Part shown: piece by piece, positions 3,429 through 22,772 of the stretch
Numbering within the stretch: the first letter of the stretch is position 1
How the letters are laid out: the number at the start of each line of letters is the position of its first letter
Source: Leptolyngbyaceae cyanobacterium
GTDB lineage: Bacteria; Cyanobacteriota; Cyanobacteriia; CAKZMO01
NCBI GenBank assembly: GCA_051439365.1
Contig: JBFRWC010000161.1
Location: forward strand, 1 to 24,250
Length of the DNA stretch: 24,250 bases
Direction: 5' to 3'
Position numbers and translations under genes: made by a program
Notes under the pieces: generated by a model
What the model saw: the letters and a program-made list of their open reading frames with translations, nothing else
Database searches by the model: none
What the model was told of the DNA's origin: nothing

Positions 3429-3599
3429 GCTGATTGACTGACAAAACTGCCTAAAACCTTGTCCCTGCCTTTGGTCAGGAGACATGCCCCCTATATTGTC
3501 CCAATCCCTTGTAGGGGAGCGGTTTCCGCACCCAAGCCCCAATTTCTGTCAGTCAACCAGCCCCGTAAGCCTGCAATCAGTCCGTGGCGATCGCCTCAG

Positions 3600-3811
3600 A
3601 TGTATTTTATTGGCCAATCTAATGAGATCAATTTTGGGTTGATGTTAGTAATAATATAAAAAACTTTTTTCCTATTTTCTCCGGATCTCAATGAGATTAG
3701 ATGTATTAAAAAAATAGAACTTTCTCTAGCATTTTATTCCTAGGTTGTAGTTCCTATCTTTGTGTAGTTTACATTTTCGTGAATCACTAGTTCTAACAGG
3801 ATAATACTAGT
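3600..3811 (+). promoter_or_regulatory. Probable promoter/leader region of the chemosensory operon
   Basis: This strongly AT-rich stretch of about 210 bp has no ORF and lies directly upstream of the first operon gene. The octamer aatgagat occurs twice (3621-3628 and 3690-3697). No specific -10/-35 assignment is claimed. Confidence 0.3.
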
Positions 3812-4189
3812 ATGACGACGACACTGCTCGGAACCATCTTAATTATTGAAGATTCTCCATCTGAAATGGAGCTAATGACTCATTATCTCAGAGAAAGTGG
3901 TTTCTTAATCCTAAATGCTGTTACGGCCAAAGAAGGCTTAGCAATGGCATGTGAGCAAAAGCCTAATATTATCCTAACGGATGTAGTGATGCCTGGGATG
4001 AGTGGGTTTGAACTTTGTCGGAGTCTCAAGAAAAACCCAATCACCCAAAATATTCCTATCATCATTTGCACCTCAAAAAATCAGGAAATTGATCGCCTTT
4101 GGGGAATGAAGCAAGGAGCAGATGCTTATATTACTAAACCCTTTAGTCGAGAACAGCTTATCCAGTCTGTGATGTCTATTTCCAGATAA
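3812..4189 (+). CDS. CheY-like single-domain response regulator (PixH/PilH-like)
   Basis: 125 aa. Receiver signatures are an acidic pocket (IIEDS), the phospho-acceptor Asp in ILTDVVMPGMSG, Thr in IIICTSK, and Lys in YITKPF. Confidence 0.9.
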   Translation: MTTTLLGTILIIEDSPSEMELMTHYLRESGFLILNAVTAKEGLAMACEQKPNIILTDVVMPGMSGFELCRSLKKNPITQNIPIIICTSKNQEIDRLWGMKQGADAYITKPFSREQLIQSVMSISR

Positions 4190-4241
4190 ATAAGTGAGCG
4201 CAAATGAATGAGCGTAAATGAATGAGCGTAAATGAATGAGC
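4188..4241. repeat. 14-bp tandem repeat (aaatgaatgagcgt), about 3.9 copies, spanning the receiver-CheW spacer
   Basis: The units are aaataagtgagcgc, aaatgaatgagcgt, aaatgaatgagcgt and aaatgaatgagc. The last unit supplies the CheW ATG at 4236. The repeat creates six ATGs (4204, 4208, 4218, 4222, 4232, 4236). Confidence 0.85.
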
Positions 4242-4766
4242 TTTTCCACCAGTTCAGAGGTACCGTCTCTTTTACAACCTCGATTTTTGTCAGACTCAAG
4301 TCAGGAAGAAAAGGAATCTGGTATTCCGTATCTTAAGTTTTTTTTGAATCTTAATACTCCTGCACTTCTGCCAATGAAAAGCATTCAGGAGGTTGCCGTT
4401 TTACCAGCTAGACTACTCACTATCATGCCTAATATGCCGCCCTATATTTTAGGATTGATTAATCGGCGGAGTCGAGTGATTTGGGTAATTGATATTAGTC
4501 AAGTTTTAGGGTTAGAGGAAATTTCATTCATCCCTAAAAACTATGATGCAATTATTGTTAAAAATGACGTATTCTGGGCTGCATTTGCAATTCATAAAAT
4601 TGAGGGAATTATTAGAGTTGAAGATGATGCGTTCAGAGCCACACCGAGTTATATATCCCCAACTTTAATTCCTTATATGAACGGCTATATCTTACAGAAT
4701 GACAATATGTCGTTGCTATTAAATATCGAGGCGATCGCCCAATCCCCATTACTCAGGAATATCTAG
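4236..4766 (+). CDS. CheW-like coupling protein (PixI/PilI-like)
   Basis: 176 aa. The CheW fold pattern is visible by eye (LKFFLN..., [38 protein letters not shown]). It sits between the receiver and the MCP, with a 1-bp gap to the next gene. Confidence 0.8.
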
Positions 4767-4767
4767 T

Positions 4768-7700
4768 ATGGTTATTAAACTTGGCTCCGAAACGTCAGAA
4801 GATTTTGACAATTCTTCAAATGAAGAGATTATCCCTAATACTCATGAAGGCGATCGCCCTCCAAGTACGCTTCAATCTGATCTCTTAACCGCCTCGTCCC
4901 CGGACTCCCTGGCAGATGAAATACTATCCTCAAATATTGCCAAAACCAATGGGGATAAAGCTTTATTTGACGAGACAACATTTGACGAGATGACATTTGA
5001 TGGGACGGAGTTTGATGAGACGGAGTTTGATGAGACAGAGTTTGATGAGACGAAATTTGATGAGACGGAGTTTGATGAGAAAAAAAATAGTGGAACGACG
5101 TTTGACGAGACGACACTTGACGATGATGAAACTTCGATAGAGGTCACCCCTGAGATACACCCAATCATTAGCGACACTGTAGTCTCTACTCAAAATTTAA
5201 GCACAAGCAAACGCTCAAAATCAGGTTGGTTTGCCAATTTACCTGTACGCAACAAGCAGTTGATTGGCTTGTTTACCTCTAAGGTCATTGCGGTCGTGGG
5301 TTTGATGGGGGTGGCTTCATTTCTGATCATTTCCTCCGGGCGATCGCAGTTGAATCAACAGGCGGAATCAGAAGTATCAGTGGTTGATCTTCAATACAAT
5401 GTCAAAATTAACCAGATGGGCTTTGGGTTTCGTGGCCAGTCTGATAATCCGGCTATTATTAGAGCATCCCTACTGATTGCCAATGGTCAACTCCTGACAC
5501 CAATAGAACAGGCCCAGGCCCAGCAGATTCTTCAAAATGAAATTACAGCTCGTCAAATTGAGTATGCAACCCTTGTTGGTCGAGATTTACGGATTATTGC
5601 CAATGCGAATACTGACCGAAGTCGTCAGATTTTCGATCCGGTTGGATTGGTGAGCCAGGTATTAGAAACAGGTCAACAAATTAAATCCAGTGCTATTGTC
5701 AGCACTGAAGAATTGGAACGGGAAGGCTCACCGCTACCCGATGGGTTTAATGCTCAAGATGCACTGATTCGGTACACGGCGACTCCGGTTTTGAATCCGG
5801 CAAACGATGATGTAGTCGGTGTGTTGATATCAGGGGATATTGTCAACAATAAAGCCCCTATCTCTCAAGGTACCTTGGATGCTTTTGGCACGGGATATGC
5901 TGCTGTTTATCAGCATCAAGAAAACGGTTCATTTCAGTTAGCAACCTCGATTGATGGTGGTGATGTTGCCAACATGCAAGGACAAATTAATGTTCCTCTG
6001 CCCAATACTGAAATATTAGAGGCAGCGGTTCAATCTCCCACAGAAGTTGTTAGCGATCGCATCAAAATTGGCCAACATACCTATTCTGTTGCAGCGAAAG
6101 CCGTGCGCGATGTTAACAATCAAGTTGTAGCTGTTCTAGTGCGGGGAACGTCAGAAGCGCCTTTGAATGCGTTGATTAGCAATAGTCTGCGAATTCAACT
6201 ATTAATCGCAGGGGCGGTGCTGGGGGTTGACGTGGTGTTAGCGATCGCCCTAGGCCGATCGATTTCAAGACCATTGAAGGATTTGCAACGTCGTACCCAA
6301 CAATTTGCTGCAGGCGATCGCCAGATTCGGGCCGAGTTGAACACCACCGACGAAATTGGGCAGTTGGCCGACACCTTTAACGATTTGGCTGACACCATTG
6401 TGCAATCAGAGGAGCAACTAAGGGGAGAGGCACAACAACAAACCCAAGAAGCCGCACGAGCGAGTTTTCTGGCTGAGTTAGCGATTCAAATGCGACCCTC
6501 CATGTCTCGCCAAGAAACCCTTAACTTGTGGGTTGACAGTGCGCGGAGCGTCTTGCAAGCGGATCGGGTGGTCTTTTATGAGTTCGATCAGGATTGGCAG
6601 GGCATTGTTACGGCTGAGTCTGTGGGTGAGGAATGGCCGATCTCCTTGGAGGATGCCATTCATGACCCTTGTTTTGCCGACAACTACGTTGACCAGTATC
6701 GTCAGGGGCGGGTGGTGGCGATCGCGGATGTCTACCAAGCCGATTTGACTCAATGTCATCTCGATCAGCTCGAGCCTTACCACGTTCGGGCCAACCTCGT
6801 GGTCCCAGTGTTGGTGGCCAATGAGTTGGAAGCCTTATTGATTGCCCACCAATGCGATCGCCCCCGTGAGTGGACCGAAGGCGAGGCCAACTTCTTCAAA
6901 CAACTGGCGATTCAACTCAGCTACGCCCTCAATCAAGGCCAGTTATTCCAGCAAAAGGAAGAAGCGCGGCTGGCCGCCGAAGCCCTATCGGAGCAGCAGC
7001 GGCAACAAAAGGAGTCCTTACAACTGCAATTGGTGGATCTGCTCAGCGACGTGGAACATGTGGCCAGTGGTGACTTAACTGTTCGGGCGGATGTCACAGC
7101 GGGGGATATTGGAACAGTGGCCGATTTCTTTAACTCCATTATTGAAAATCTGCGCCAAATCGTGATTCAGGTGAAGGACTCATCGGATCAAGTTAACACT
7201 GCCTTGGGAGCTGATTCTGCGTCCATTCGCTTGTTGGCGGACGCAGCCCTCAAGCAAGCGGAAGAAAGTACCAGCACCTTAGCGTCAATGGAGGAGATGA
7301 TTCAGTCGATTACGGTGGTGGCACAACGGGCACAAGATGCCGCTAATGTGGCTCACACCGCAGCGATGACCGCTGAGACGGGAGGGGCGGCGATGGATCA
7401 AACGGTTCGCACAATCTTACGCCTCCGGACCACAGTAGGAGAAACGGCGAAGAAAGTGAAGCGATTGGGTGAAGCCTCTCAGCAAATTTCCAAAGTGGTG
7501 TCGCTGATTAATCAAATTGCGATGCAAACTAACTTGTTAGCCATCAACGCGGGGATTGAGGCGGCTCGGGCAGGGGAGGATGGGCAGGGATTTGCGGTGG
7601 TGGCGGAGGAAGTGGGAGAACTTGCAGCGCGATCGGCAGCAGCCACCCAGGAAATTGAGCTGATTGTCGAAAATATTCAACTCGAAACCAGCCAGGTAGT

Positions 7701-8019
7701 AGAGGCGATGGAAATTGGCACGAGTCAAGTGGTGAAAGGAACCCAGTTGGTGGAAGATGCCAAAAATAGTTTGGGCCAAATTAGGGTCGTGTCCCGTCAA
7801 ATTGATGACTTGGTTGCCGCAATTTCAGAGGCGACGGTGTCCCAGGTGAAAACGTCGGAATCGGTGGCCCGGTTGATGGCGGATATGGCCAAAGTGTCGG
7901 AACAAACGTCACAATCGTCGCTGCACGTCTCCAACTCTTTGCAAGAAACGGTAGCGATCGCCCAAACCCTCCAGGAATCTGTCAACACTTTTAAGGTCGA
8001 GGACGATTCTGACAAATAG
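4768..8019 (+). CDS. Methyl-accepting chemotaxis protein with a DXCF cyanobacteriochrome GAF domain (PixJ-like phototaxis receptor)
   Basis: 1083 aa. The order is an acidic repeat N-terminus, TM1 (about aa 165-190), an extracytoplasmic region of about 285 aa, TM2, HAMP ([16 protein letters not shown]...[15 protein letters not shown]), a GAF domain, and an MCP signalling domain ([32 protein letters not shown]). Confidence 0.9.
4966..5130 (+). repeat. In-frame 15-bp tandem repeat encoding (T-E-F-D-E)n
   Basis: Eight contiguous units of tttgaYgRgaNNNNN run from 4966 to 5085. Two further degenerate units follow at 5101-5130. The encoded peptide is [38 protein letters not shown]...[11 protein letters not shown]. 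Confidence 0.85.
6490..6975 (+). other. GAF domain of the MCP with the two-Cys (DXCF) cyanobacteriochrome signature
   Basis: DPCF has its Cys codon at 6670-6672 (aa 635). The canonical chromophore-binding Cys-His (QCHL) has its Cys codon at 6754-6756 (aa 663). The surrounding pattern is [16 protein letters not shown]...YRQGR..AI.D.....L..CH...L....VRANLVVPV...LLIAHQC..PR.W. Confidence 0.75.
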
Positions 8020-8184
8020 CAGTCAACAAATCACGGGATAACGCCCAGACTCGTTAGGTCTAGAGCCTCCACTCTACCCTCCTGTTTGCATCCCTGGGGT
8101 GCGTATTGATAAGTAAGAATCTGCAAATCAATTAAAAGATATCAGAGGAGAGGCGGCAGGAGCATCTCACTCGCCTGGAGAGCT

Positions 8185-11100
8185 ATGCAAGACGCAAAAG
8201 AACGCGAAATTCAACTGCAATTTCTAGATGAGGCTGACGATCATCTGCGAACGCTAGATGCGGTATTGCTGGAATTATCGAGTCGGGCCATTGAGGGGGC
8301 TCAGATTAATGCGGCCCTCCGTGCTGCCCATTCCATGAAAGGGGGCGGCAGTTTGATGGGCTTCCCGGTCCTGAGTCAGCTTGCCCATCAGATGGAAGAT
8401 GCACTGAAGGCGCTGAAGGTGCAGCGGCGTACGCTAAAAATAGACCGTGAACTGGAAACGCTACTGCTGTCAGGCGTGGACTGTTTGCAACTGGTCGTGA
8501 ACTGCGATCGCCAACGACGACCTCTTCCCCCAGATTGGCTCCAGAAGACGGCCCAGCCTATTTTTGACCAACTGCGCGATCGCCTCGGTGAACCCAAGGA
8601 GGAGAAAGCCACACCTGTCTTGACGTTGGATGAAGAGCAAGACATCATGCCGATTCTGTTTCAAACAGAAGTGGACGGCTGTCTCAATCGTCTAGAAGCT
8701 CTCCTCGATATCCCCAATCCCCCCTGTCTTGGCGAAGAGGTGATTCTCCTAGCCCAAGAGCTCGGCGGATTGGGCGCAATGTTGCAACTGACGGCATTCT
8801 GCCGTTTGTGTGCATCGGTGGCACATACTATCCAACTTGCCCCCAGCCGTATTGGGGAGATTGCTCACGTTGCGGTTGCTGAGTGGCGGCGATCGCAGTC
8901 TCTTGTCCTCACGAACCAACTTGATCACCTCCCCTCAACCATCCAAATTCCCGGACTGTGGGGTCAACTGGACCCTAAGATTGACCCAATGGATTTCTTG
9001 GCCACCGTGTCCACTGAGATAATCCTCTCTGAGAATAGCGTCCCAGGGTTTGCTGCGAGTTCTGAGCCAACCCTGTCCTTTGACGACTTGGATGATATTG
9101 TTGATGATGATGAAGTGGAAGATAATTTCAGGGATAGCTTCGATGCAGCGGCTGAACTAGACCCGTCCGAATTCCCGACTCTGATTGAAGCCTTTACCCA
9201 TGAAGCCAGTCAATCCCTGGAAAGTAAGGGGGAACATGATCCCCCCTGCCCAGATTTGATTGATCTGGAGCAAACTGCGATTGTTGATTTGACGGACTGG
9301 CTAGATAAGCAAGAGGCTGAGGCTAGTGTTGAGGACGTTGATCAGGCTGAAGCTGAGGCTGAGGCTAGTGTTGAGGACGTTGACTGGGCTGAAGCTGATT
9401 TAGATTCAGCCGTTGATTTAGATCCAGACGTTGATTTAGATTCAGCCGTTGATTTAGCATCCACGAGTTTAGCGCAAGCTGATTTAGCGCCAGAAGCTGA
9501 TTTAGAGCGAGCGAGTTTAGAAGAAGCTAATTTAGCGCCAACGGGTTTGGTAAACCAAGCAGAACAACCAGCCCCTCAAAATCTACCGACCGCAACCTTG
9601 GACGACACCGCGCCCGACACTTCATCCGGGCAAGATTCTGATCTGTCGCCTGAATCATCATCAACCGATCGTCAGATTAGCGAACTGATGGCCGAGTTGT
9701 TTGCTGATTCTACGGATGAAGAGGCAATTTTATCCCATACAGAAATCACCGAAACCTTAGAGGCGCTATGGAACGATGCAGGGCTTGATCCTGACTTGGA
9801 CCTGGACCTGGACCTAGACTTAGACCTAGACTTAGACCTAGAGGTTGAGGTTGAGGTTGAAGTTGGGCACGAGTCTGATCGGGGGGCTGAACTTGGACAC
9901 GAACTGGAGCCAGAGCCGGAATCAACGCCACCTCTTGACCATGAGTCTGAGCTAGAACTGGAGCCAGAATTGTTGTTGGCACTGGAGCGTGAACCTGTGC
10001 TGGAACTGGAACCTGATCGAGAGGCTAATCTGAAGTCTGGTCTAGAACCGGAACTGAACTCTGATCTGGTGCTGGAATGTGAGCACGAACCAGGGCCAGA
10101 GCAGGAACTCAAACTAGGACTGGAGTCGGAGTTGGGGCACGAACTAGGGCTGGATCTAGAGCACAAACTAAGGCCGGAACTGGAGCACGAACTAAGGCCG
10201 GAACTGGAGCACGAACCGGGGTTGGAGTTGGAGGGCGAACTAGGATTAGAACTGGAGCGCGAACCAGAACCAAAAATGGAGGGCGAACCAGAACCAAAAA
10301 TGGAGGGCGATCGCCCTCCCCAGACCGATTTAGATCTCCTCTTTGCTCAAGTTTCTCTTCCTGCTGACGCTTCTGCCATCAATGCGCCTACGATGGTCGA
10401 GTCGATCGTTGATGCAACGGCTGATCGAAGCCCTGATCGAAGCCCTGATCGAACCCCTAATCGAACCCTTGATCCGAGCATTGATCCAACCCCTGATCGG
10501 CCCCAAGCCGTCCCCTTTGCCGATCCGCCCCAGCCATCTGTTGCAGCTAACCCCATCTTGGCAGTAGAATCCCCATCTACCCATGATCTAAGCTTCCCCG
10601 TTACTATTGCTCCCACGACACCAGAACCCTCTACGGCTGAATTTCAACTCCTTACCCCCAGAAAATCAGAACTTTCTCCCGCTGCCGAAGAAGATCTGGG
10701 TTTTGTGCGAGTCAATGTCAAACACCTCAACCAACTCAATGATCTACTCGGTGAGCTAACCATTGACCGCAATGGTTTAACCCTTTATCTCAAACGCCTT
10801 CGGAGCTTGGTCAAACGATTGAGTCGCCAAGTCCGAGTTCTCAATCAAGCCAACACCCATCTCCAATCCGCCTATGATCAAAATGTTGCCCACAATATGG
10901 AGCAAGACGGGTTATCCTTACGACCCACGTCCCTGGTCGCGTCCCAGGGAGCGACGACTCAACATGAAACTATCCTGGACTTGGGCGAGGCCGACCCCAA
11001 TGCCCTTTTACAGGAGCTGGCTCTCCTGCCCTCTCTATGGGAACACCAGTTTGATGCTCTGGAGATGGATCGGTATACCGATCTCCATCATCTATTCCAA

Positions 11101-12744
11101 ACTGTGATGGAAGGAATGGTGAAAATCCAGGAGGTAGCGGAAGACCTGGGCCTGAACCTCGATGAAAGCGAGCAGGCGGCCCGCAATCTCAATAAAACGG
11201 CTCGGCAACTGCAAACAGAACTGACCCATGCCAGGATGCGTCCCCTCGTGGATATCACGAACCGCTTTCCCAAAGCCCTGCGAGAACTGTCATTGCGCCA
11301 TGGCAAAGAGGTGGTTTTTAAGCTGCATGGTGGCCACACCCTGATCGATCGCACCATTCTAGATGGGTTGAGTGAACCGCTGATGCACATGGTGCGCAAC
11401 GCCTTTGATCACGGCTTGGAAGATCCAGAAACCCGCCGCCAACAGGGGAAACTAGAAGCTGGCACCATTGCGATTCATGCCAGTCACCAGGGAAATCGAA
11501 CGATTATCAGTATTAGTGATGATGGGCGCGGGATTGATCTGGAGAAAATTCGCAGTCGCGCTATTCGGATGGGATTGGATGCAACCCTGCTTAGGGCCGC
11601 GTCGGAAGAAGAACTGTTGTCGCTAATTTTTGAACCGGGTTTTAGCACCTCCGAGGCGACAACGGATCTATCCGGTCGGGGAGTGGGCATGGATGTGGTG
11701 CGCGATCGCCTCCAACAACTCCACGGCGATATCAAAATTACCACCCGTGCTGGCCACGGCACCACCTTTAGTCTGACCCTTCCCCTCACCCTTGCCATTA
11801 CCCGCGTCTTGCTGGTCGAGAGTAATGGCATGTTAATGGCGGTGCCCGTTGATGCCATTGATGAAATGATTGTGCTGGAATCCAGCCAAATTAGCACGGA
11901 GCAAGGCCAAGAGGTCTTTGAATATGATGGCAAAACAGCCAATTTGATCCGCCTCAGCCAGTGGCTCACCTTTCACTGTCCCCGTAGTATTCCTGATGAG
12001 TTGGAAACGCCCCCCAGTCTCAAAGTTCCATCGGTCTTAATCGTCAAACGGGGCACCCAAGTCACGGGCATTGAAGTCGAACAGTCTTGGCGCGAGCAGG
12101 AAGTCACGGTGCGCCGAGTGGCGGGGACCATTGCATTACCCGAAGGCTTTAGTAGCTGCACGATTTTGGGGGATGGCCGAGTCGTTCCCCTCCTCAACAT
12201 TTCGGCCATGTTGCATTGGGTGATTAGCCACCAACGGTCTGCGATCGCTGGCTCTACCCCTGATCCCCGTCGTTTGCTGACAGCATCTCCAGCCACCGAA
12301 CGATCAGGCAAGACCCAACCCTCCCTCAGATCACGATCCGTACGGGAACCACAACCCTTCCCGAAATCTCCCCCGAAGCCCCTCAAGATCATGATTGTTG
12401 ATGACTCGATCGCCGTACGACAGTTGTTGGCTGGAACGTTAGAAAAAGCCGCCTATCGAGTCGAACAGGCCAAAGATGGTCTGGATGCCCTAGAAAAATT
12501 GACCAGTGGTCAGACAATGGATGCCGTGATTTGCGACGTGGAAATGCCCCGGCTGGATGGGTATCGACTCCTCGCCAAACTACAAGCGGATGAAACCTTG
12601 CGACGTATCCCGGTGATGATGTTAACTTCACGCAGTGGGGAAAAGCACCGTAAGCTAGCAATGGGCCTAGGGGCCAGAGGATATTGCACCAAGCCTTACA
12701 GCGATCAAGCCCTGCTACAACAGCTTGCCGCGATGATGGGCTAG
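8185..12744 (+). CDS. Hybrid CheA-type histidine kinase (Hpt, long acidic linker, dimerisation/HATPase, CheW-like, receiver); PixL/PilL-like
   Basis: 1519 aa. The Hpt motif is AAHSMKGG (His49 codon 8329-8331). The CheA core shows ARMRPL...FPKALRELS, N-box MVRNAFDHGLE, G1 DDGRGID and G2 GRGVGMD. A CheW-like domain follows (MLMAVPVDAIDEM...ILGDGRVVPLLNI). The C-terminal receiver shows IMIVDDS, CDVEMPRLDG and TKP. Confidence 0.9.
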   Translation: MQDAKEREIQLQFLDEADDHLRTLDAVLLELSSRAIEGAQINAALRAAHSMKGGGSLMGFPVLSQLAHQMEDALKALKVQRRTLKIDRELETLLLSGVDCLQLVVNCDRQRRPLPPDWLQKTAQPIFDQLRDRLGEPKEEKATPVLTLDEEQDIMPILFQTEVDGCLNRLEALLDIPNPPCLGEEVILLAQELGGLGAMLQLTAFCRLCASVAHTIQLAPSRIGEIAHVAVAEWRRSQSLVLTNQLDHLPSTIQIPGLWGQLDPKIDPMDFLATVSTEIILSENSVPGFAASSEPTLSFDDLDDIVDDDEVEDNFRDSFDAAAELDPSEFPTLIEAFTHEASQSLESKGEHDPPCPDLIDLEQTAIVDLTDWLDKQEAEASVEDVDQAEAEAEASVEDVDWAEADLDSAVDLDPDVDLDSAVDLASTSLAQADLAPEADLERASLEEANLAPTGLVNQAEQPAPQNLPTATLDDTAPDTSSGQDSDLSPESSSTDRQISELMAELFADSTDEEAILSHTEITETLEALWNDAGLDPDLDLDLDLDLDLDLDLEVEVEVEVGHESDRGAELGHELEPEPESTPPLDHESELELEPELLLALEREPVLELEPDREANLKSGLEPELNSDLVLECEHEPGPEQELKLGLESELGHELGLDLEHKLRPELEHELRPELEHEPGLELEGELGLELEREPEPKMEGEPEPKMEGDRPPQTDLDLLFAQVSLPADASAINAPTMVESIVDATADRSPDRSPDRTPNRTLDPSIDPTPDRPQAVPFADPPQPSVAANPILAVESPSTHDLSFPVTIAPTTPEPSTAEFQLLTPRKSELSPAAEEDLGFVRVNVKHLNQLNDLLGELTIDRNGLTLYLKRLRSLVKRLSRQVRVLNQANTHLQSAYDQNVAHNMEQDGLSLRPTSLVASQGATTQHETILDLGEADPNALLQELALLPSLWEHQFDALEMDRYTDLHHLFQTVMEGMVKIQEVAEDLGLNLDESEQAARNLNKTARQLQTELTHARMRPLVDITNRFPKALRELSLRHGKEVVFKLHGGHTLIDRTILDGLSEPLMHMVRNAFDHGLEDPETRRQQGKLEAGTIAIHASHQGNRTIISISDDGRGIDLEKIRSRAIRMGLDATLLRAASEEELLSLIFEPGFSTSEATTDLSGRGVGMDVVRDRLQQLHGDIKITTRAGHGTTFSLTLPLTLAITRVLLVESNGMLMAVPVDAIDEMIVLESSQISTEQGQEVFEYDGKTANLIRLSQWLTFHCPRSIPDELETPPSLKVPSVLIVKRGTQVTGIEVEQSWREQEVTVRRVAGTIALPEGFSSCTILGDGRVVPLLNISAMLHWVISHQRSAIAGSTPDPRRLLTASPATERSGKTQPSLRSRSVREPQPFPKSPPKPLKIMIVDDSIAVRQLLAGTLEKAAYRVEQAKDGLDALEKLTSGQTMDAVICDVEMPRLDGYRLLAKLQADETLRRIPVMMLTSRSGEKHRKLAMGLGARGYCTKPYSDQALLQQLAAMMG
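9290..10480 (+). repeat. Cluster of in-frame short tandem and dispersed repeats inside the CheA linker
   Basis: gctgaggctagtgttgaggacgttga appears twice (about 9316 and about 9355). gatttagattcagccgttgatttag appears twice. A run of (gacYtR)n encoding DL x9 at 9787-9840 is followed by (gaggtt)4 encoding EVEVEVEV at 9841-9864. ggccggaactggagcacgaact appears twice (about 10174-10220). gagggcgaaccagaaccaaaaatg appears twice (about 10270-10310). agccctgatcga-type units encode SPDR/SPDR/TPNR/TLDP/SIDP/TPDR at 10428-10500. Confidence 0.8.
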
Positions 12745-15885: not shown

Positions 15886-15990
15886 GCTGCTATGTCATGG
15901 CCAGCAAATTTCACCCCAAATGTCCCAAATATAGTATTCTAGAACTAGAATTGGAGGACAAGGTTTAGATCGTTGTGTGAGGTGAGTCCA

Positions 15991-16830
15991 ATGTATGAGT
16001 TTTCCCCCAACCATCAGCGCCCCCTACCCACCATGTACGATTTGCCCAGCGAGGAAGTTGGAGAGCCAGGGTTGCCAGACGAATTTCACCGAATGCAAGC
16101 GGAGTTGCTGCGGGAAACCTGCCAGTCGCCCTGCTATCCGCTCCCCATGTCTCCCGGACAGGGCACGGAATCCACGGCTGCATCCACCAACGAGGGCATT
16201 TTTATCGCTAGTGATCTCAACCTCTACTACGATTCCCGCAATCCCAGACTGTATAAGCGCCCCGACTGGTTTATGTGCCTGGGGATGCCCAATCTGGGTC
16301 GTCAGCAAGATTTGCGCTGGAGTTATCTAATTTGGCAAGAATCTGTCGCCCCTTTTTTAGTGATGGAGTTTTTATCTCCTGGCACCGAGGCCGATGATTT
16401 GGGTGAAACCGTGCGTCGCATTGACCAGTCCCCCCGCAAATGGGACGTGTATGAGCGGTTGCTGCGAATTCCCTACTACGGCGTGAACGATCGCTACCAA
16501 AATCAATTCCGCCTGTTCCAACTAGACGGCATCCAGTACCGAGAGTTAGACTTACCCGACGCTCGTTTCTGGTTTGAGAGTTTAAAGTTAGGCTTAGGAA
16601 TTTGGTCCGGCTATTACGAAGGCAGCAATGGCTTATGGCTACGGTGGTACGATGGCGATGGCCAGTGGATTCCCACCGAGCGGGAACAGATAGAACAGGA
16701 ACAAGCACGGGCACAGCAAGCGGAGACTCAGGCCAACGCTGAACGAGAACGGGCACAACAGGCAGAGGCCAACTATCAGGCGTTACTGCAAAAACTGCGA
16801 GAGCAGGGGATCGATCCGGATTCGTTGTGA
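15991..16830 (+). CDS. Uma2 family (DUF820) putative restriction-endonuclease-like protein
   Basis: The cyanobacterial Uma2 pattern is present: PTMYDLPSE...GLPDEFH, NLYYD, KRPDWF, VMEFLSPGTE..D and KWDVYERLLRIPYYGVND. The tail is Gln/Ala/Glu-rich and coiled-coil-like, ending in QGIDPDSL. ATG 15991 is preferred over the TTG at 15973. Confidence 0.8.
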   Translation: MYEFSPNHQRPLPTMYDLPSEEVGEPGLPDEFHRMQAELLRETCQSPCYPLPMSPGQGTESTAASTNEGIFIASDLNLYYDSRNPRLYKRPDWFMCLGMPNLGRQQDLRWSYLIWQESVAPFLVMEFLSPGTEADDLGETVRRIDQSPRKWDVYERLLRIPYYGVNDRYQNQFRLFQLDGIQYRELDLPDARFWFESLKLGLGIWSGYYEGSNGLWLRWYDGDGQWIPTEREQIEQEQARAQQAETQANAERERAQQAEANYQALLQKLREQGIDPDSL

Positions 16831-16863: not shown

Positions 16864-17210
16864 CGGCGGGAAGGAAAGGGCGATCGCCCCCCACCTCAAA
16901 AACTCACCAAAAACTCCCCAAAAACAAAGGAGCAAGCCGCCAAACGCCCCGCTCCTCTGTCTAATATGTGCAATCTCAAACGTAGAACTTTTGTGCAAAG
17001 CTCGTCTCTCCCATAGTATGCCCAGTCCCCCTCCCTGAATTTGTATCAAATGCTCCAAACAGAAAAAAATCTTTTGGATCTCAATCCGGTCTAAATCTAC
17101 AGAAATCTGGTGGCTTCTAGTGACTTCTAGTGGCTGTCAGGTTACGATCCATATCTGCTGTTTCAGCAAACATAGATCCATTTATCCTCAACTTAGATCG
17201 GAGGTGCAAG

Positions 17211-17900
17211 ATGACCCGCAAAGCAATTATCTTACTGTCTGGTGGCTTAGACTCGGCCACATCTGCGGCTCAAGCGATCGCCGACGGGTATGACCTGATC
17301 GCCCTCTCCTTTCGCTACGGTCAGCGCCACGAGCGGGAATTAACCGCCGCCACCAAAATTGCCGCTCTCCTGGGGATCACCCAACACTACACAATAGAGG
17401 TCAATCTGGCCCAATGGGGCGGGTCATCCCTGACCGAACCCTCTCAAGCCATTCCCTCCGATGGAGTCAAGCCCGATGAAATTCCCTCCACCTATGTGCC
17501 CGGTCGGAATACGGTGTTTATTGCGATCGCCCTCTCTTTAGCAGAAGCCCAAAACGCAGAGGCGATTTATCTAGGCATCAATGCAGTGGACTATTCCGGC
17601 TACCCGGACTGTCGGCCCGAATATTTACAAACCTATCAGCAGTTGGCCCTGTTGTCGTCTAAAGCAGGGTTGGAAGGCCATGCCCCCCGACTGATCGCCC
17701 CATTGGTAAACGATTCCAAAACTGATATTGTCCGCCGAGCGCTAAAACTAGGGGTACCCATTGCGGAAACTTGGTCCTGCTACAAGGGAGAAGCGGAACC
17801 CTGTGGGGTATGTGATTCTTGTCGGATACGCGATCGCGCCCTGATTGAAGCGGGACATCCTGAATTGGCGAGTGCGATGGGGCGATTACACGCTGTATAA
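17211..17900 (+). CDS. queC: 7-cyano-7-deazaguanine synthase
   Basis: The PP-loop is ILLSGGLDS. Also present are GQRHERE, YVPGRNT, and the C-terminal zinc cysteine cluster CYKG...[13 protein letters not shown] 17211 is preceded by ggagg (17200-17204). The 81-bp upstream extension to GTG 17130 in the ORF track is unlikely. Confidence 0.9.
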
Positions 17901-18096
17901 GCCAGCCAACGCATTTTAACTATATTTCTTCATGAGCATCTCACCTAGCTAGTTTTATAGCTATTCATTACAGACGAGAAGCATGATTCTTTTTCTTGAA
18001 TCAAGATATTACGAAGTCAATTAAGTATACTTATAAGATGATACTCTGGAGACCAAGAAACACGTAGATTCCCTCCATAGCGTATTGGAGCGTCCA

Positions 18097-19188
18097 ATGT
18101 ACAGAGCCGTGAATTCGCAGCAGTCTACAAACATAACTGATGAGCAGAGAGAATCTGCTGAAGCAGAGATCCGAGAAAAGCAAAAGCCTGTAGACTACGA
18201 CACCAAAGAGTACCCCGTTGAGATTCTCGTTCAAAAGTACCTTGACGGACGAGAAGATGATACAAATGAGTTATTCATTCCTGACTACCAGCGGGAAATA
18301 GTCTGGGATGATAAAAGACAATCAAAATTTATCGAATCTGTCTTACTAGGCTTGCCTATTCCATATATTTTTGTCGCAGATATCCCAGATGAAGAGAATG
18401 AAGCCCGTTTGGAAATTATAGATGGGACTCAGAGAATCAGGACTCTGACCAGATTCCTTAGTAATGACTTAACGCTACAAAATCTCAAAAAACTTAAAAA
18501 ATTAAACAACTTCAAGTTTAGTGACTTACCTCTTTCCCGTCAAAGACGCTTTAAAAGAACTACTCTTCGCATGATTCAGCTAACAGAAAAAGCAGATGAA
18601 GCTATCCGAAGGGATATGTTTGAGCGGATCAACACAGGTAGTGTAGTTTTGAATGACATGGAAAAGCGGAAAGGGATACAGCGTGGTCCGTTTTTAGACT
18701 TTATTGAGCGATTGTCAGAAAATGATAAGTTTCGTAAGTTATGCCCACTTTCACAAGTCGCTGTTGACAGGCGTGAACCACAGGAATTTGTACTAAGATT
18801 CTTTGCTTATCTCAATAATTATAAGAAATTTGAGCGCCAGGTAAATAAATTTCTTAATGAATACTTAGAAGAGCATAATCATGATAGCTTTCCCAAAGAA
18901 AGTATGCAGCTAGAATTTGAAGCCATGTTGGATTTTATAGACATCTACTTTCCGAATGGATTTAGCAAAGGTAAAAAGTATAAAACTACTCCTCGAATTA
19001 GATTTGAAGCTATCTCGGTTGGCACTGCACTTGCTTTAAGAGAAAATCCTAATTTGGAGCCAACCTCAATGGATTGGCTGGACTCGGATGAGTTTAAGGA
19101 ATATACAACTTCTGATGCGAGTAATTCTAAACCAAAAGTGATTCGTCGGATTGAATATGTACGTGATCAACTCCTTGGCAATTCATGA
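18097..19188 (+). CDS. DUF262 (ParB-like/GmrSD N-terminal NTPase-type) domain protein with no recognisable DUF1524/HNH nuclease half
   Basis: The DUF262 signature is FIPDYQREIVWDDKRQSKFIESVLLGLPIPYIF...IIDGTQRIRTL (a DGQQR-type motif, Asp codon at 18421). The C-terminal 200 aa or so show no H..N..H / (D/E)H-type nuclease motif by eye. ATG 18097 has a GGAG 6 nt upstream. The ORF track starts at TTG 18085. Confidence 0.8.
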   Translation: MYRAVNSQQSTNITDEQRESAEAEIREKQKPVDYDTKEYPVEILVQKYLDGREDDTNELFIPDYQREIVWDDKRQSKFIESVLLGLPIPYIFVADIPDEENEARLEIIDGTQRIRTLTRFLSNDLTLQNLKKLKKLNNFKFSDLPLSRQRRFKRTTLRMIQLTEKADEAIRRDMFERINTGSVVLNDMEKRKGIQRGPFLDFIERLSENDKFRKLCPLSQVAVDRREPQEFVLRFFAYLNNYKKFERQVNKFLNEYLEEHNHDSFPKESMQLEFEAMLDFIDIYFPNGFSKGKKYKTTPRIRFEAISVGTALALRENPNLEPTSMDWLDSDEFKEYTTSDASNSKPKVIRRIEYVRDQLLGNS

Positions 19189-19883
19189 ATAGTATCTTAT
19201 TCCAAGACTTCAGAGATCGCTCCAAAGAAGTCAGTAAATACTTTATCTTTCTCAAGAGTTTGGAGCAGGCTACCACTAAGATCAGTATGGAGGATAAAAA
19301 TGGTAATCCAAAGATTAAGGTGATTGATAGCGATCTATTGAAAACCTTGAAAGCAAGTGCTTTCCTGCTTCTTTATAACTTAGTAGAAGCAACGATGAGA
19401 AATGCAATAGAAGCAATCTTTGATGAACTGAAAATCAGAGGTATTGCCTATGATCAAATTAGACCTGAACTTAAGAAGGTAGTCCTTCAGAATTTCAAGA
19501 GACGCAATCCTGACCGATTGCTTTCAACTATTAATACAATTGCTGTTGATATTATTGCTGCTGGATTTGATAAAGGTGAGCTATTCTCAGGTAATCTTGA
19601 TGGTCGAAAAATTAGAGATACCGCAAGTGAATATGGATTTTCACATCAAACCGATTATGCAAGGACTGGAGATGGAAAGGATTTGCTAACGGTAAAGACA
19701 AATAGAAATGATCTTGCTCATGGATTTAAATCATTTACTGAAGTAGGAAGAGATAAAACAGCAGATGAACTTTTAGAAATTAAGAATAAAGTTGTCAGGT
19801 ATTTAAGACAGATATTAGAAAACATTGATCAGTATCTTTCCAGACAAGATTATCTGGATACACCTACCTCTACAACTCCCTAG
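19185..19883 (+). CDS. HEPN-superfamily putative nuclease (Rx4H motif; resembles MAE_28990/MAE_18760-type or RiboL-PSP-type HEPN)
   Basis: 232-aa, largely helical-looking protein. RNDLAH (R174-H179, nt 19704-19721) is followed by G, in the C-terminal position typical of HEPN. Its start overlaps the DUF262 stop in ATGA (19185-19188). The family-level call is from memory only. Confidence 0.6.
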   Translation: MNSILFQDFRDRSKEVSKYFIFLKSLEQATTKISMEDKNGNPKIKVIDSDLLKTLKASAFLLLYNLVEATMRNAIEAIFDELKIRGIAYDQIRPELKKVVLQNFKRRNPDRLLSTINTIAVDIIAAGFDKGELFSGNLDGRKIRDTASEYGFSHQTDYARTGDGKDLLTVKTNRNDLAHGFKSFTEVGRDKTADELLEIKNKVVRYLRQILENIDQYLSRQDYLDTPTSTTP

Positions 19884-20923
19884 CTGTAAAACTCATTAAT
19901 ATGTGAAAGGATGCTTTGTGCAATAACCTCACCCAATCTGACAGGCACAGCATTACCGATCATTTTTCCTACCCGATCAAATACAATAGGTTCACTAGGT
20001 TCTACAAATTCATAATTAGCTGGAAACGTTTGTAGCAACGCAGCCTCTCTAAGGGATATGGCCCGATCTTGCTCTGGATGACCAAAGCGGCCATTGCCAA
20101 ACCCAAAACACTGAGTTGTAATAGTTGGACTAGGCTGGCTCCATTCCATGCGACCATATACACCTGGATAAGTCTTCCCGCTACTTTTGATATGACACTT
20201 TGCGACTAGATCCTTGCTCCAATCTCGCCAAGTGCCACCAGGTTTTGAAGCACGAATGCGCCTCAAATTGAGTCCAGACAACTTACTACTGCGGTGCAAT
20301 CGATCGAGTTGAGATGACTGTCCAGCAATAAGTGGTTCAAGATGTGCGATAGTCGTGCCGACTGTTTCATATGTTTCTGGGCTATGTGTTGGCTTAATCA
20401 AATTAATTTTTTCAAATCTTGATGCGAGTAAAACCAGTCTTTTTCGGGTCTGCGGAACTCCATACTCTTGGCAATTCACTTCATTGATGCTATAGAAATA
20501 ACCTGACTTTTGCAGATGATTGATAAACTCATTGAACACTGAATGATGTTTGATCTGAAGTACATTTTCCATAGAGACTATTTCTGGTTCAGATTCCTTT
20601 ATGAGGCGGCTAAAGTCTTGCAAAAGTTTCCACTTTTTGCTCTTATTAGAATAGCGTCTGGTGTAAGTTGAAAAAGGTTGACAAGGCGCACAACCTGCTA
20701 GAACTCGAACATCACTGTTAGCGAAATATGCTGCTAAGTCGTTACCATCAATTTGCTCTACATCTCTAAGAATAAATTGCGCTCTTGTGTTATGTTCATA
20801 AGGAAACTGACACGTGGGATCAATGTCATATCCAGCTTTCACTGGAAGACCTGCCTGCTCAAATCCATAAGTTAATCCTCCTGCACCACAGAAAAGGTCA
20901 ACTGTAGCGATCGTAATAACCAT
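19880..20923 (-). CDS. dcm: DNA (cytosine-5)-methyltransferase
   Basis: All conserved m5C MTase motifs are present in order: I DLFCGAGG, IV PCQPFS (catalytic Cys), VI ENV, VIII QTRKR, then a variable TRD of about 120 aa, IX REAALLQTFP, and X GNAVPV. Confidence 0.9.
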   Translation of the reverse strand: MVITIATVDLFCGAGGLTYGFEQAGLPVKAGYDIDPTCQFPYEHNTRAQFILRDVEQIDGNDLAAYFANSDVRVLAGCAPCQPFSTYTRRYSNKSKKWKLLQDFSRLIKESEPEIVSMENVLQIKHHSVFNEFINHLQKSGYFYSINEVNCQEYGVPQTRKRLVLLASRFEKINLIKPTHSPETYETVGTTIAHLEPLIAGQSSQLDRLHRSSKLSGLNLRRIRASKPGGTWRDWSKDLVAKCHIKSSGKTYPGVYGRMEWSQPSPTITTQCFGFGNGRFGHPEQDRAISLREAALLQTFPANYEFVEPSEPIVFDRVGKMIGNAVPVRLGEVIAQSILSHINEFYS

Positions 20924-20993
20924 TAAAGCTTCAACTAATATTCCTTTGAAAAAGACATACTATCCTAGCATACCTAGCCTTATTATTTTGGTG

Positions 20994-22772
20994 CTAGCCT
21001 CGTAATCCCTTATCATTCAAAAAACGCATAAAATTACGCTTACGATTATGGGTTGCCCGTAAATCTGCCAACCATTGCTTAAACTCTGCCTTTTGATCTA
21101 ATCGAATCATTAGGGTTTTAATCGTTGCGATTAATTCCACTGCTTGTTTGTATGCCTCGTTGTTTTTCTGCTTAATCAACGGTTCAACTCTGGGCTGATA
21201 CACCGCCACTGCATCAGCGGGATGATCCGCTTCCCGTGCAGCGGCCAACTCCATCCATAGCTTACCCCGACATCCCCCAGTCTTGGCTTCCTGCCACGCT
21301 TGATCCACATCGCCTTCCCAGAGAAAAATCTCCACCAACAAGGAGTAATCAGTCAACCCAGTGTTGGCCCGATGGATACGGTTCCGGCCTGGAGAATCTG
21401 GACTTTTCTGGATAACTTGACGAATGTGGTCTAGGGCTTGGCGATGCCAGTGGTCCCAAGTCCCCAGTTGATCCGCCTGCTGCTTCAATTGCTGATAGAC
21501 GGTGATAGAGGGAACACGCTGTAGGTCTCGCCAGACGATGGCCAGGGCATCATCTAACCGTCCTTGTTTTTCGTATTCTGTAATCAGGAAATCCCCCAAT
21601 TGGCCCGTGCGCGGGTGGTCGCTAAAGGCTGCTAACCCTTTTTCCGCCCAAGCGATCGCCTCATCTCCTTCCCCGTTGTGACGATAGATCTGGGCAATCT
21701 TCAAGTAGCGAGATGGCTGAGACAAATCTTGGGCGATCGTGTTCACCAAATCTTCGACGGTGCCGGAAGCCTCCACCAATCGTTCCTTGGTACGGCGCAA
21801 CTGTGAATAGCGATAGCTGTAGCCCCCATCACTCCGGTTTTTTGCAGCTAGTTCCTCAGCTAATGCTGTATCCAACAGTTTTTCGTAGGCTTGAAGTCCC
21901 GTCTTGCCTAAAATATCAGCATACTTTTCAACGGAACTATCAAAAATGCCATAGTCTGAATTGATTTCTAAATGGAAAATGCTCGTCGCTAATTTCGTCA
22001 GGTCTGGTTGTCCAGCCACACAAGCCCGATAGTGTAAATCCTGAATATCGCAGGCTACGCCGCCCACACTGCCGCTGGAATCGTCAATGGAGTTGTAAGC
22101 CTCTTCGATGAGGGCGATCGCCTCCTCACACAATTCCACCACCTCATTGGCATAGCCCCGTTCCAGCAACTCCTCCAACCCACGAATCACCGAGCTAATC
22201 TCATCAGCGTAGTCGTAAGCCTCCCGGTAGCCGATGTAGGTACTCACATCTTGAATAGCGATGGCATCCCGCAACGACCGCCGAAATGTACTGATGTCTG
22301 CGCCACCCACTTGCTGTGCCGCCACTTTCATCAACAATTGTTCTCGCCAGCGGGGATCATTCATCGCTTGATCCACAATCAGTTGCACCAGCGTCTCGTG
22401 GGATTGCTGACTGAGGTAATCCCGCACATCCGTCATGGTAGTGGCCCGTGGCGCGGTGGCAGTCCCACTCGGCGGACGATAGGGTGGTGGTTCTGCAATC
22501 CAGACCAAACCCACAGCCACGCAATGTTTGCAGAAATAGCCAGCGACTCCCATCGGGCAAGAGCAGTCGGACTGTAGATCGTCATGTTCATCCAGCCACA
22601 GATGAACCTGGTAGGTTGCCGTGCCACTGACCGCAGCGGTAATGTGGTCGCCATCCTGGGCGAGGGCATGGACCCTACCCTGATGAAAGTAATTCACGCC
22701 CCGCTCATAGAAGCGATGACCCGCCAAGGTTTCCAACAGTTCTGAGTCCAGAATGTCACTCAATGTTGCCAT
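20994..22772 (-). CDS. SWIM zinc finger domain protein with a long helical-repeat C-terminal region
   Basis: 592 aa. The SWIM CxCxnCxH motif is CSCPMGVAGYFCKHC near the N-terminus. The remainder is alpha-helical and looks TPR-like. The gene contains HIP1 sites and has host-like composition. Confidence 0.8.
   Translation of the reverse strand: MATLSDILDSELLETLAGHRFYERGVNYFHQGRVHALAQDGDHITAAVSGTATYQVHLWLDEHDDLQSDCSCPMGVAGYFCKHCVAVGLVWIAEPPPYRPPSGTATAPRATTMTDVRDYLSQQSHETLVQLIVDQAMNDPRWREQLLMKVAAQQVGGADISTFRRSLRDAIAIQDVSTYIGYREAYDYADEISSVIRGLEELLERGYANEVVELCEEAIALIEEAYNSIDDSSGSVGGVACDIQDLHYRACVAGQPDLTKLATSIFHLEINSDYGIFDSSVEKYADILGKTGLQAYEKLLDTALAEELAAKNRSDGGYSYRYSQLRRTKERLVEASGTVEDLVNTIAQDLSQPSRYLKIAQIYRHNGEGDEAIAWAEKGLAAFSDHPRTGQLGDFLITEYEKQGRLDDALAIVWRDLQRVPSITVYQQLKQQADQLGTWDHWHRQALDHIRQVIQKSPDSPGRNRIHRANTGLTDYSLLVEIFLWEGDVDQAWQEAKTGGCRGKLWMELAAAREADHPADAVAVYQPRVEPLIKQKNNEAYKQAVELIATIKTLMIRLDQKAEFKQWLADLRATHNRKRNFMRFLNDKGLRG

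Follow-up and report, generated by a model that had tools for sequence, protein, structure and literature searches.

A candidate three-gene antiphage cassette of the MAE_28990 HEPN, ParB/DUF262 and DNA methylase type in a Leptolyngbyaceae cyanobacterium

Closest described systems

Pairing of a DUF262 gene with a HEPN gene is not new: it has been on record from computational work since 2013, and a sister pair has been verified by experiment since 2022. Anantharaman, Makarova, Burroughs, Koonin, and Aravind (2013, Biol Direct 8:15) recorded in their Table 1 an operon of MAE_28990 HEPN, ParB, and DNA methylase genes and proposed HEPN RNases coupled to restriction-modification (R-M). The PD-T4-2 system of Escherichia coli ECOR65, listed as "DUF262, HEPN" and validated (Vassallo et al. 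2022, Nat Microbiol, Table S1), guards E. coli against phage T4 both natively and when transplanted into K-12, and its native deletion restores T4 plaquing. The locus described here lies on a contig of a Leptolyngbyaceae cyanobacterium (GenBank assembly GCA_051439365.1, contig JBFRWC010000161.1), of which a stretch of 24,250 nucleotides, referred to below as the window, was analyzed. It comprises three adjacent genes encoding a DUF262/ParB-fold protein (gene 1), a HEPN protein (gene 2), and a C5 cytosine DNA methyltransferase (gene 3). We put the probability at about 0.55 that it is a horizontally mobile three-gene antiphage cassette of the "MAE_28990 HEPN + ParB/DUF262 + DNA methylase" type, following R-M logic with an RNase output. 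That it is a DUF262 and HEPN defense module of the PD-T4-2 or MAE_28990 kind is very probable, and the specific combination of an R-M-like trigger with an RNA target stands at even odds. A first-pass annotation, made from the sequence alone, had read the pair as a split defense module with a DUF262 sensor and a HEPN effector, a reading that came through three computational refutation tests and agrees with the validated PD-T4-2.

The window cassette shares with the MAE_28990 operons of 2013 (PF18737) the HEPN family, the Rx4H motif, the DUF262 gene in the operon, and the adjacent methylase, and it shows no structural difference from them. Orientation variants, a swap of methylase type, and forms without the DUF262 C-terminal domain are absent from the table of the 2013 paper.

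PD-T4-2 was filed under DUF262 and PF18735 in a 2023 review, in which PD-T4-2, Menshen, and Dazbog appear as systems without DUF1524, and systems of the PD-T4-2 kind were still described as largely uncharacterized by Li et al. (2025, NAR). Like PD-T4-2, the window pair consists of two genes, DUF262 and HEPN, without DUF1524; gene 1 fits the PADLOC model PD-T4-2_A (although the NsnA model scores higher), and PF18735, the family to which the review assigned PD-T4-2, also matches the window HEPN protein. In contrast, the window HEPN protein has no match to PD-T4-2_B in PADLOC at an E value of ≤1, and three other MAE_28990 partners have none at ≤0.01. PD-T4-2 spans 1540 bp, compared with 1787 bp for the window pair, so its HEPN protein must presumably be much smaller, and it has no methylase, whereas the window cassette has a co-inherited C5 methylase. 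Because of the missing PD-T4-2_B match, the shorter span of PD-T4-2, and its lack of a methylase, we regard the window system as a sister subtype of PD-T4-2.

Other systems resemble the window cassette in part. Menshen (NsnABC; Millman et al. 2022; Li et al. 2025) has an NsnA-like protein of ParB-DUF262 plus ParBDB architecture as its proposed sensor, but the downstream gene in the window encodes a HEPN protein, there is neither an NsnB ATPase nor an NsnC effector (an inactive PIN domain plus a nuclease), and a methylase is attached; the sensor chassis is alike and the effector different. No PADLOC match to NsnB was obtained among the four proteins scanned (the three encoded by the low-GC island that holds the cassette and a neighboring SWIM/DUF6880 protein). 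Identity with Menshen was rejected on the absence of NsnB and NsnC, the neighbors being the C5 methylase, queC, and the SWIM/DUF6880 gene. The type IV enzymes GmrSD, BrxU, and SspE have the DUF262 domain with its DGxQR NTPase motif; in SspE and GmrSD, DUF262 is the NTPase sensor that activates an attached nuclease (2023 review; Li et al. 2025). They differ from the window system in carrying a DUF1524 His-Me nuclease, the place of which is taken in the window by a separate HEPN effector; in their length (~560 to 790 amino acids [aa], compared with 363 aa for gene 1); and in their logic, to which an attached cognate methylase is the opposite. An ordinary GmrSD was rejected for gene 1 on its lack of DUF1524, its length of only 363 aa, and the lack of a conserved histidine in its C-terminal half.

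PrrC-EcoprrI and other R-M-linked HEPN RNases likewise tie a HEPN RNase, regulated by an NTPase partner, to a modification or restriction module. PrrC, however, is an ABC ATPase fused to HEPN and lies inside a type Ic hsdMSR operon, whereas in the window the NTPase and the HEPN domain are on separate proteins, the former with a ParB fold, and a classical restriction endonuclease is lacking. Classical type II R-M systems differ in the same respect, as no restriction endonuclease of a known nuclease fold stands beside the window methylase. A preprint on DARNA was considered as a relevant system and rejected because it concerns PD-T7-3, which is not a DUF262 system.

Gene content of the cassette

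Counted from its ATG, gene 1 encodes 363 aa, and a Shine-Dalgarno-like GGAG precedes the ATG at 18087-18090. The length would rise to 367 aa with the upstream TTG at 18085 as the start and is 359 aa in the NCBI protein. The DUF262 signature noted in the first-pass annotation (YQREIVW at aa 64-70 and IIDGTQRIRTL at aa 107-117) is present and falls within a Pfam match to GmrSD_N/DUF262 (PF03235; aa 54-193; E value, 4.5e-30). All three motifs that define the family (Li et al. 2025, who also described the ParBDB domain) were recognized, namely, QRxxxW (Q65..W70), DGxQR (D109-R113), and FxxxN (F175..N179), and residues Q65, W70, D109, G110, Q112, R113, F175, and N179 are invariant in 31/31 homologs. 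The C-terminal half had appeared at first reading to lack a DUF1524 or HNH motif, and a Pfam profile scan at an E value of ≤1 accordingly found neither domain in gene 1 or gene 2, while an alignment of 31 sequences contained no invariant histidine in the C-terminal half of gene 1. More generally, gene 1 showed neither a nuclease fold nor a catalytic metal-binding motif in the Pfam scan or the 31-homolog alignment.

The best PADLOC match of gene 1 is NsnA (1.5e-59), aligned from aa 7 to 357 with model positions 18 to 377 of 385, followed by PD-T4-2_A (5.4e-36; aa 61-353 on model positions 54-355 of 363). The alignments of the GmrSD-like models SspE, HEC-05, and HEC-06 cover no more than a short stretch at the N terminus, and the REase_II model PDLC03418 aligns to the DUF262 domain only (1.4e-9). 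The first-pass annotation had pictured the HEPN protein as a replacement for the DUF1524 half of a GmrSD-type enzyme. DUF1524 is indeed absent, but gene 1 is, by its profile matches, an NsnA/PD-T4-2_A-type "ParB-DUF262 + ParBDB" protein and not a truncated GmrSD, because its best match, NsnA, covers the full length and the GmrSD-like models cover only the N-terminal stretch. In an AlphaFold2 (AF2) model with a mean predicted local distance difference test score (pLDDT) of 83, the C-terminal half is all helical, with about nine helices, and the best matches among solved structures are BrxU (E value, 7.4e-4; probability, 1.0) and then ParB CTPases. The full-length NsnA match suggests that the C-terminal domain is probably a ParBDB-type putative DNA-binding domain.

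The stop codon of gene 1 overlaps the start codon of gene 2 in an ATGA, just where the first-pass annotation had placed it together with the 232-aa protein bearing RNDLAHG, and the arrangement indicates that the two genes are translationally coupled. By a simple first-start rule for open reading frames (ORFs), the same 4-bp overlap is called in 41/80 related loci. Gene 2 matches HEPN_MAE_28990 (PF18737) with an E value of 2.4e-49 and a score of 168.8 bits against a cutoff of 26.8, from aa 2 to 223 and over model positions 2 to 211 of 211; it also matches HEPN_RiboL-PSP (PF18735; E value, 8.9e-11) and the HEPN region of the PADLOC Csx1/Csm6 model (2.8e-5). Residues R174, H179, and G180 show no variation across 98 diverse representatives of the family (30 to 50% identity to the query), nor do Y64, N65, and E68 of the first long helix; R174 and H179 are invariant in 31 close homologs as well, so the Rx4H motif noted in the first-pass annotation is conserved. 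The AF2 model of gene 2 has a pLDDT of 95.3 and a predicted template modeling score of 0.90. The family is large, with 1,298 clusters at 50% identity (E value, ≤1e-3).

Gene 3 matches the Pfam DNA_methylase family (1.7e-59), TIGR00675 dcm (2.9e-39), and the PADLOC models MTase_II and DrmMII; its alignment with M.HaeIII and M.HhaI is restricted to the catalytic half. It converges on gene 2, and the stop codons of the two genes overlap in a palindromic CTAG (Table 1); the same stop/stop overlap is found in 24 related cyanobacterial loci and in Moraxella phage Mcat25. The three genes form an island with a GC content of 0.37 to 0.41, compared with 0.50 to 0.56 in the flanks. No tRNA gene and no convincing flanking repeats were found around the island, and Pfam detected no PD-(D/E)XK, HNH, GIY-YIG, or PLD domain within it.

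Table 1. Positions in the window of the three genes, their domains and motifs, and the island that contains them
Feature	Position	Strand	Basis
Low-GC island with three genes, between queC and SWIM/DUF6880 gene	17950..20990	.	GC content
Gene 1, DUF262/ParB-fold NTPase protein with C-terminal all-helical domain, 363 aa	18097..19188	+	Pfam, PADLOC, AF2
ParB/DUF262 domain, aa 54-193, with three family motifs	18256..18675	+	Pfam envelope
C-terminal helical domain, aa ~198-360, probably ParBDB-type	18688..19176	+	AF2 model, PADLOC NsnA and PD-T4-2_A alignments
ATGA overlap, gene 1 stop/gene 2 start	19185..19188	+	Sequence
Gene 2, HEPN protein of MAE_28990 family, predicted RNase effector, 232 aa	19185..19883	+	Pfam, PADLOC, AF2
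Rx4H predicted catalytic motif R174-N-D-L-A-H179 (within RNDLAHG)	19704..19721	+	Alignment
Palindromic CTAG, overlapping stop codons of HEPN gene (+) and methylase gene (-)	19880..19883	.	Sequence
Gene 3, C5 cytosine DNA methyltransferase, convergent with gene 2, 347 aa	19880..20923	-	Pfam, TIGR00675, PADLOC

Conservation of the pair and linkage of the methylase

A survey of one genome per GTDB species, with an alignment of 18 HEPN sequences as the query, returned 430 loci, and the best 80 of these (L001 to L080), all of them cyanobacterial and with HEPN proteins 55 to 81% identical, were analyzed. In 79/80, the HEPN gene is immediately preceded on its own strand by a DUF262 ORF, and the sole locus without one is interrupted by a contig end. 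Together with copies on plasmids and phages of other lineages, these loci bear out the expectation that the two genes are conserved together. The pair recurs in hundreds of genomes, and this recurrence, taken with the family match, indicates that the gene features are not a product of chance. In related genomes the cassette is flanked by unrelated housekeeping genes (those for ClpB, aconitase B, SecA, UvrD, and an ABC1 kinase, among others), and the module therefore appears to move as a small island.

The first-pass annotation had raised the question of how often the pair occurs with or without a 5-methylcytosine (m5C) methyltransferase, and the answer is mixed: an orthologous C5 methylase lies directly downstream in 37/80 cyanobacterial loci and adjoins the pair in 9/11 contexts outside the cyanobacteria. 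Among the 56 cyanobacterial loci with a full-length DUF262 gene, tblastn found a C5 methylase beside 34, an N4/N6 methylase beside 3, and no adjacent DNA methylase beside 19. The three exceptions in methylase type (L055, L057, and L058, from Nostocales/Rivularia/Calothrix) carry an N6_N4_Mtase gene (PF01555), codirectional with the HEPN gene, directly downstream of HEPN in place of the C5 methylase; that of L055 (2.4e-39) is at 6794-7771 (+). Such swapping of methylases is typical of R-M systems.

In 18 further loci the DUF262 gene is reduced to its first ~180 residues, and tblastn found a methylase beside none of them (0/18), compared with 37/56 of the full-length loci. Few independent events are represented, because 14 of the 18 are from Microcoleus. 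Either the short form is functional, as a minimal variant, or it is a sensor in decay that was kept after loss of the methylase. In these loci (L024, L043, L050, L053, L054, L056, L060-L063, L066-L068, L070, L071, L073, L074, and L078), the gene lies at about 5150-5950 and encodes the ParB domain without the helical C-terminal domain; the HEPN gene is intact, with a spacer of ~50 to 120 bp between the two genes. A decayed copy of another kind is found on the chromosome of a Hormoscilla metagenome-assembled genome (L014, 4031-6474), where the DUF262 gene is in three pieces and two frames, with an insertion of ~850 bp behind residue ~86; the HEPN ORF is shortened (6001-6474) and the methylase is intact.

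Outside the cyanobacteria, plasmids and phages from a further four lineages carry the pair, those of Proteobacteria and Actinobacteria among them. The whole trio is present on plasmids of Klebsiella, Roseomonas (two), Rhodococcus (two), Polaromonas, and Sinorhizobium, in a P2-like coliphage, and in nine Moraxella catarrhalis phages. Across phyla, full-length methylases are 45 to 57% identical to that of the window, compared with 40 to 53% for DUF262 and 22 to 41% for HEPN; among the 9 methylase-linked contexts, one methylase is frameshifted and one is a partial match of ~30%. The methylase is mostly convergent with the pair, but in Roseomonas OT10 and Rhodococcus qingshengii (L086 and L087) it is codirectional, with overlapping stop and start codons; orientation varies, so the linkage survives rearrangement. 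On Polaromonas plasmid pPNAP06 (L085), tblastn located a convergent C5 methylase, 48% identical, at 3174-4196 (-), and on Sinorhizobium pSymA (L089) it located the whole trio, with a partial methylase match. The plasmid gene tables list nothing at these matches, and counts from annotation only would therefore underestimate the linkage. As judged from its distribution, the methylase is an integral, co-inherited third gene and more than a neighbor, and the logic of the cassette is therefore likely to be R-M-like instead of GmrSD-like (modification dependent).

Co-variation among the three genes was assessed in 54 of the 80 cyanobacterial loci as identity to one reference sequence, that of the window, with phylogenetic nonindependence ignored. 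The identity of the HEPN protein is correlated with that of the DUF262 C-terminal domain (rho, 0.58; P = 4e-6) and not with that of the N-terminal domain (rho, -0.01), and the identities of methylase and HEPN are correlated as well (rho, 0.71). The C-terminal domain is ~70% identical to that of the window where a C5 methylase is present and 57 to 60% identical where the C5 methylase is replaced or absent, whereas the N-terminal domain is ~75 to 78% identical in all classes of loci. Two readings are possible: contact with HEPN or specificity may reside in the C-terminal domain, or the N-terminal domain may be subject to exchange by recombination. Because a single reference was used and shared ancestry was ignored, the co-variation statistics are only suggestive of a functional methylase.

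Proposed function and alternatives

In an R-M-like cassette with an RNase output, the methylase would mark the host's own DNA, and the DUF262 protein would bind DNA through its helical domain, with NTP binding or hydrolysis serving as a switch. On meeting unmarked DNA of an incoming phage or plasmid, the DUF262 protein would activate an associated HEPN dimer, which would cleave RNA (tRNA or mRNA) and thereby stop translation and phage growth, resulting in abortive infection or growth arrest. The output would be that of an RNase, in place of the DUF1524 DNase of GmrSD-type enzymes. Linkage of the methylase persists through changes of phylum, replicon, orientation, and methylase class; a functional methylase is favored because of this linkage across phyla, the swap of methylase type, and the lack of methylases beside short DUF262 genes.

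Several observations weigh against this interpretation. The characterized DUF262 sensors (GmrSD, BrxU, and SspE) recognize modified and not unmodified DNA (2023 review; Li et al. 2025), and PD-T4-2 works as a two-gene system without a methylase (Vassallo et al. 2022); hence a pair need not have a linked methylase. The same is suggested by the 19/56 full-length cyanobacterial pairs that have no adjacent DNA methylase (two of these at contig ends) and by an E. coli/Salmonella IncF plasmid that carries the pair only, with IS66 downstream. In Escherichia phage P2_4B2 (L090; NC_049387.1, 29078-31979), where the pair lies near the right end, beyond replication gene A, the C5 methylase beside the intact pair is split over two frames (residues 3-230 and 229-346), owing either to a frameshift or to a sequencing error. 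Within the C5-linked loci, the identity of the methylase is not significantly correlated with that of the DUF262 C-terminal domain (rho, -0.16). The best Foldseek match of the gene 2 model in the PDB is weak (E value, 0.055), and the HEPN family profile matches nothing among PDB sequences; because there is no significant match to a solved HEPN structure, the assignment of gene 2 as a putative HEPN protein rests on the profile matches and the invariant motif. As for the literature, the MAE_28990 subtype is represented by the 2013 computational description only, no experimental work on it having been found. The first-pass annotation's question whether the pairing had been characterized is answered computationally by that description and experimentally, for a sister pair, by the validation of PD-T4-2 in 2022.

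A sharper version of R-M logic with an RNase output, which we consider rather unlikely, is a true R-M system in which the "restriction" arm never cuts DNA: a ParB-fold NTPase would read methylation through its helical domain and respond by way of RNA cleavage by HEPN. The sensor domain and HEPN would then co-evolve, the type of methylase would be exchangeable (C5 for N4/N6), and the variants without the methylase and the DNA-reading domain would act in some other mode. It differs from the proposal of 2013, in which the ParB protein is a DNase and HEPN is a backup.

The two-pronged scheme of 2013, with ParB/DUF262 as the DNA-cutting restriction subunit that is paired with the methylase and, as a second line of defense, a HEPN RNase that is kept inactive by the R-M proteins and released only when restriction is blocked or overwhelmed, as in PrrC/EcoprrI, is improbable for the window cassette. 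Anantharaman et al. named the partner a "ParB nuclease" and proposed PrrC-like logic for the R-M-linked HEPN families, and both the match of the PADLOC type II REase model PDLC03418 to the DUF262 domain and the frequency of methylase linkage are consistent with it. In the characterized proteins, however, DUF262 is the NTPase and sensor and a separate DUF1524 domain does the cutting, and neither a nuclease fold nor a metal-binding catalytic motif was detected in gene 1; a methylase is, moreover, missing from PD-T4-2 and many other pairs.

That absence would also suit a type IV-like sensor, in which DUF262 reads modified phage DNA (for example, hydroxymethylcytosine [hmC] or glucosyl-hmC), as do GmrSD, BrxU, and Dazbog, and fires HEPN, with the methylase as a functionally separate co-traveler, such as an orphan or anti-restriction methylase. 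The known DUF262 sensors read modified DNA. Selection of the sister system, PD-T4-2, was on phage T4, the DNA of which contains glucosyl-hmC. On the other hand, the C5 methylase is attached across five bacterial lineages, on plasmids and in phages, in two orientations, and with overlapping stops or starts, which is hard to explain for an unrelated passenger, and an enzyme that makes m5C beside a sensor of modified cytosine would risk self-targeting. We therefore hold this alternative, too, to be doubtful.

An addiction module, in which the pair, a HEPN toxin neutralized by the DUF262 protein, mainly stabilizes the mobile island and its methylase and any phage defense is incidental, is very unlikely: HEPN proteins are common toxins of toxin-antitoxin systems with an upstream neutralizing partner (the MNT-HEPN and ParA-HEPN dyads; Anantharaman et al. 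2013), the ATGA coupling fixes stoichiometry, and the cassette is mobile on plasmids and prophages, but an antitoxin would be far simpler than a protein of 363 aa in which the NTPase motifs are strictly conserved and a putative DNA-binding domain is conserved as well, and PD-T4-2 protects from phage, its native deletion being viable and merely restoring T4 plaquing.

With the combination cataloged in 2013 and the sister pair validated as phage defense, the locus itself adds little; the remaining novelty is mechanistic and lies in the possible transduction of methylation state into RNA cleavage within a very widespread module, one that is carried on plasmids and temperate phages of clinical genera. 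If methylation is coupled to an RNase through a ParB-fold NTPase, the cassette would show cleanly how R-M logic can drive abortive infection, and its three tightly packed genes would lend themselves well to experiments. The HEPN partner of the window is not represented by a model in PADLOC v2, and a PADLOC v2 run would therefore probably miss the cassette.

Neighboring genes

The island is adjoined by a gene with host-like GC content (20994-22772, -) for a 592-aa protein with a SWIM zinc finger, DUF6880, and TPR. This protein has a full-length match to the PADLOC "phage defence candidate" PDC-S62 (2.4e-54), and its N terminus matches DpdE models (7e-10); together with the cassette, the gene may form a small defense island. 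Directly upstream of the island lies queC (17130-17900, +), encoding 7-cyano-7-deazaguanine synthase, and one gene further upstream lies a gene for a Uma2-family putative endonuclease (15973-16830, +). The queC gene normally serves queuosine biosynthesis and also occurs in Dpd DNA modification clusters; its position beside the island, opposite the DpdE-like SWIM protein, is probably a coincidence. Elsewhere in the window, a chemotaxis- or phototaxis-like operon (3812-12744, +) encodes a CheY-like receiver, CheW, a methyl-accepting chemotaxis protein of 1083 aa with HAMP and GAF domains, and a hybrid CheA of 1519 aa. A second stretch of low GC content (0.39 to 0.41), at 3500-5500, covers the 5' part of this operon.

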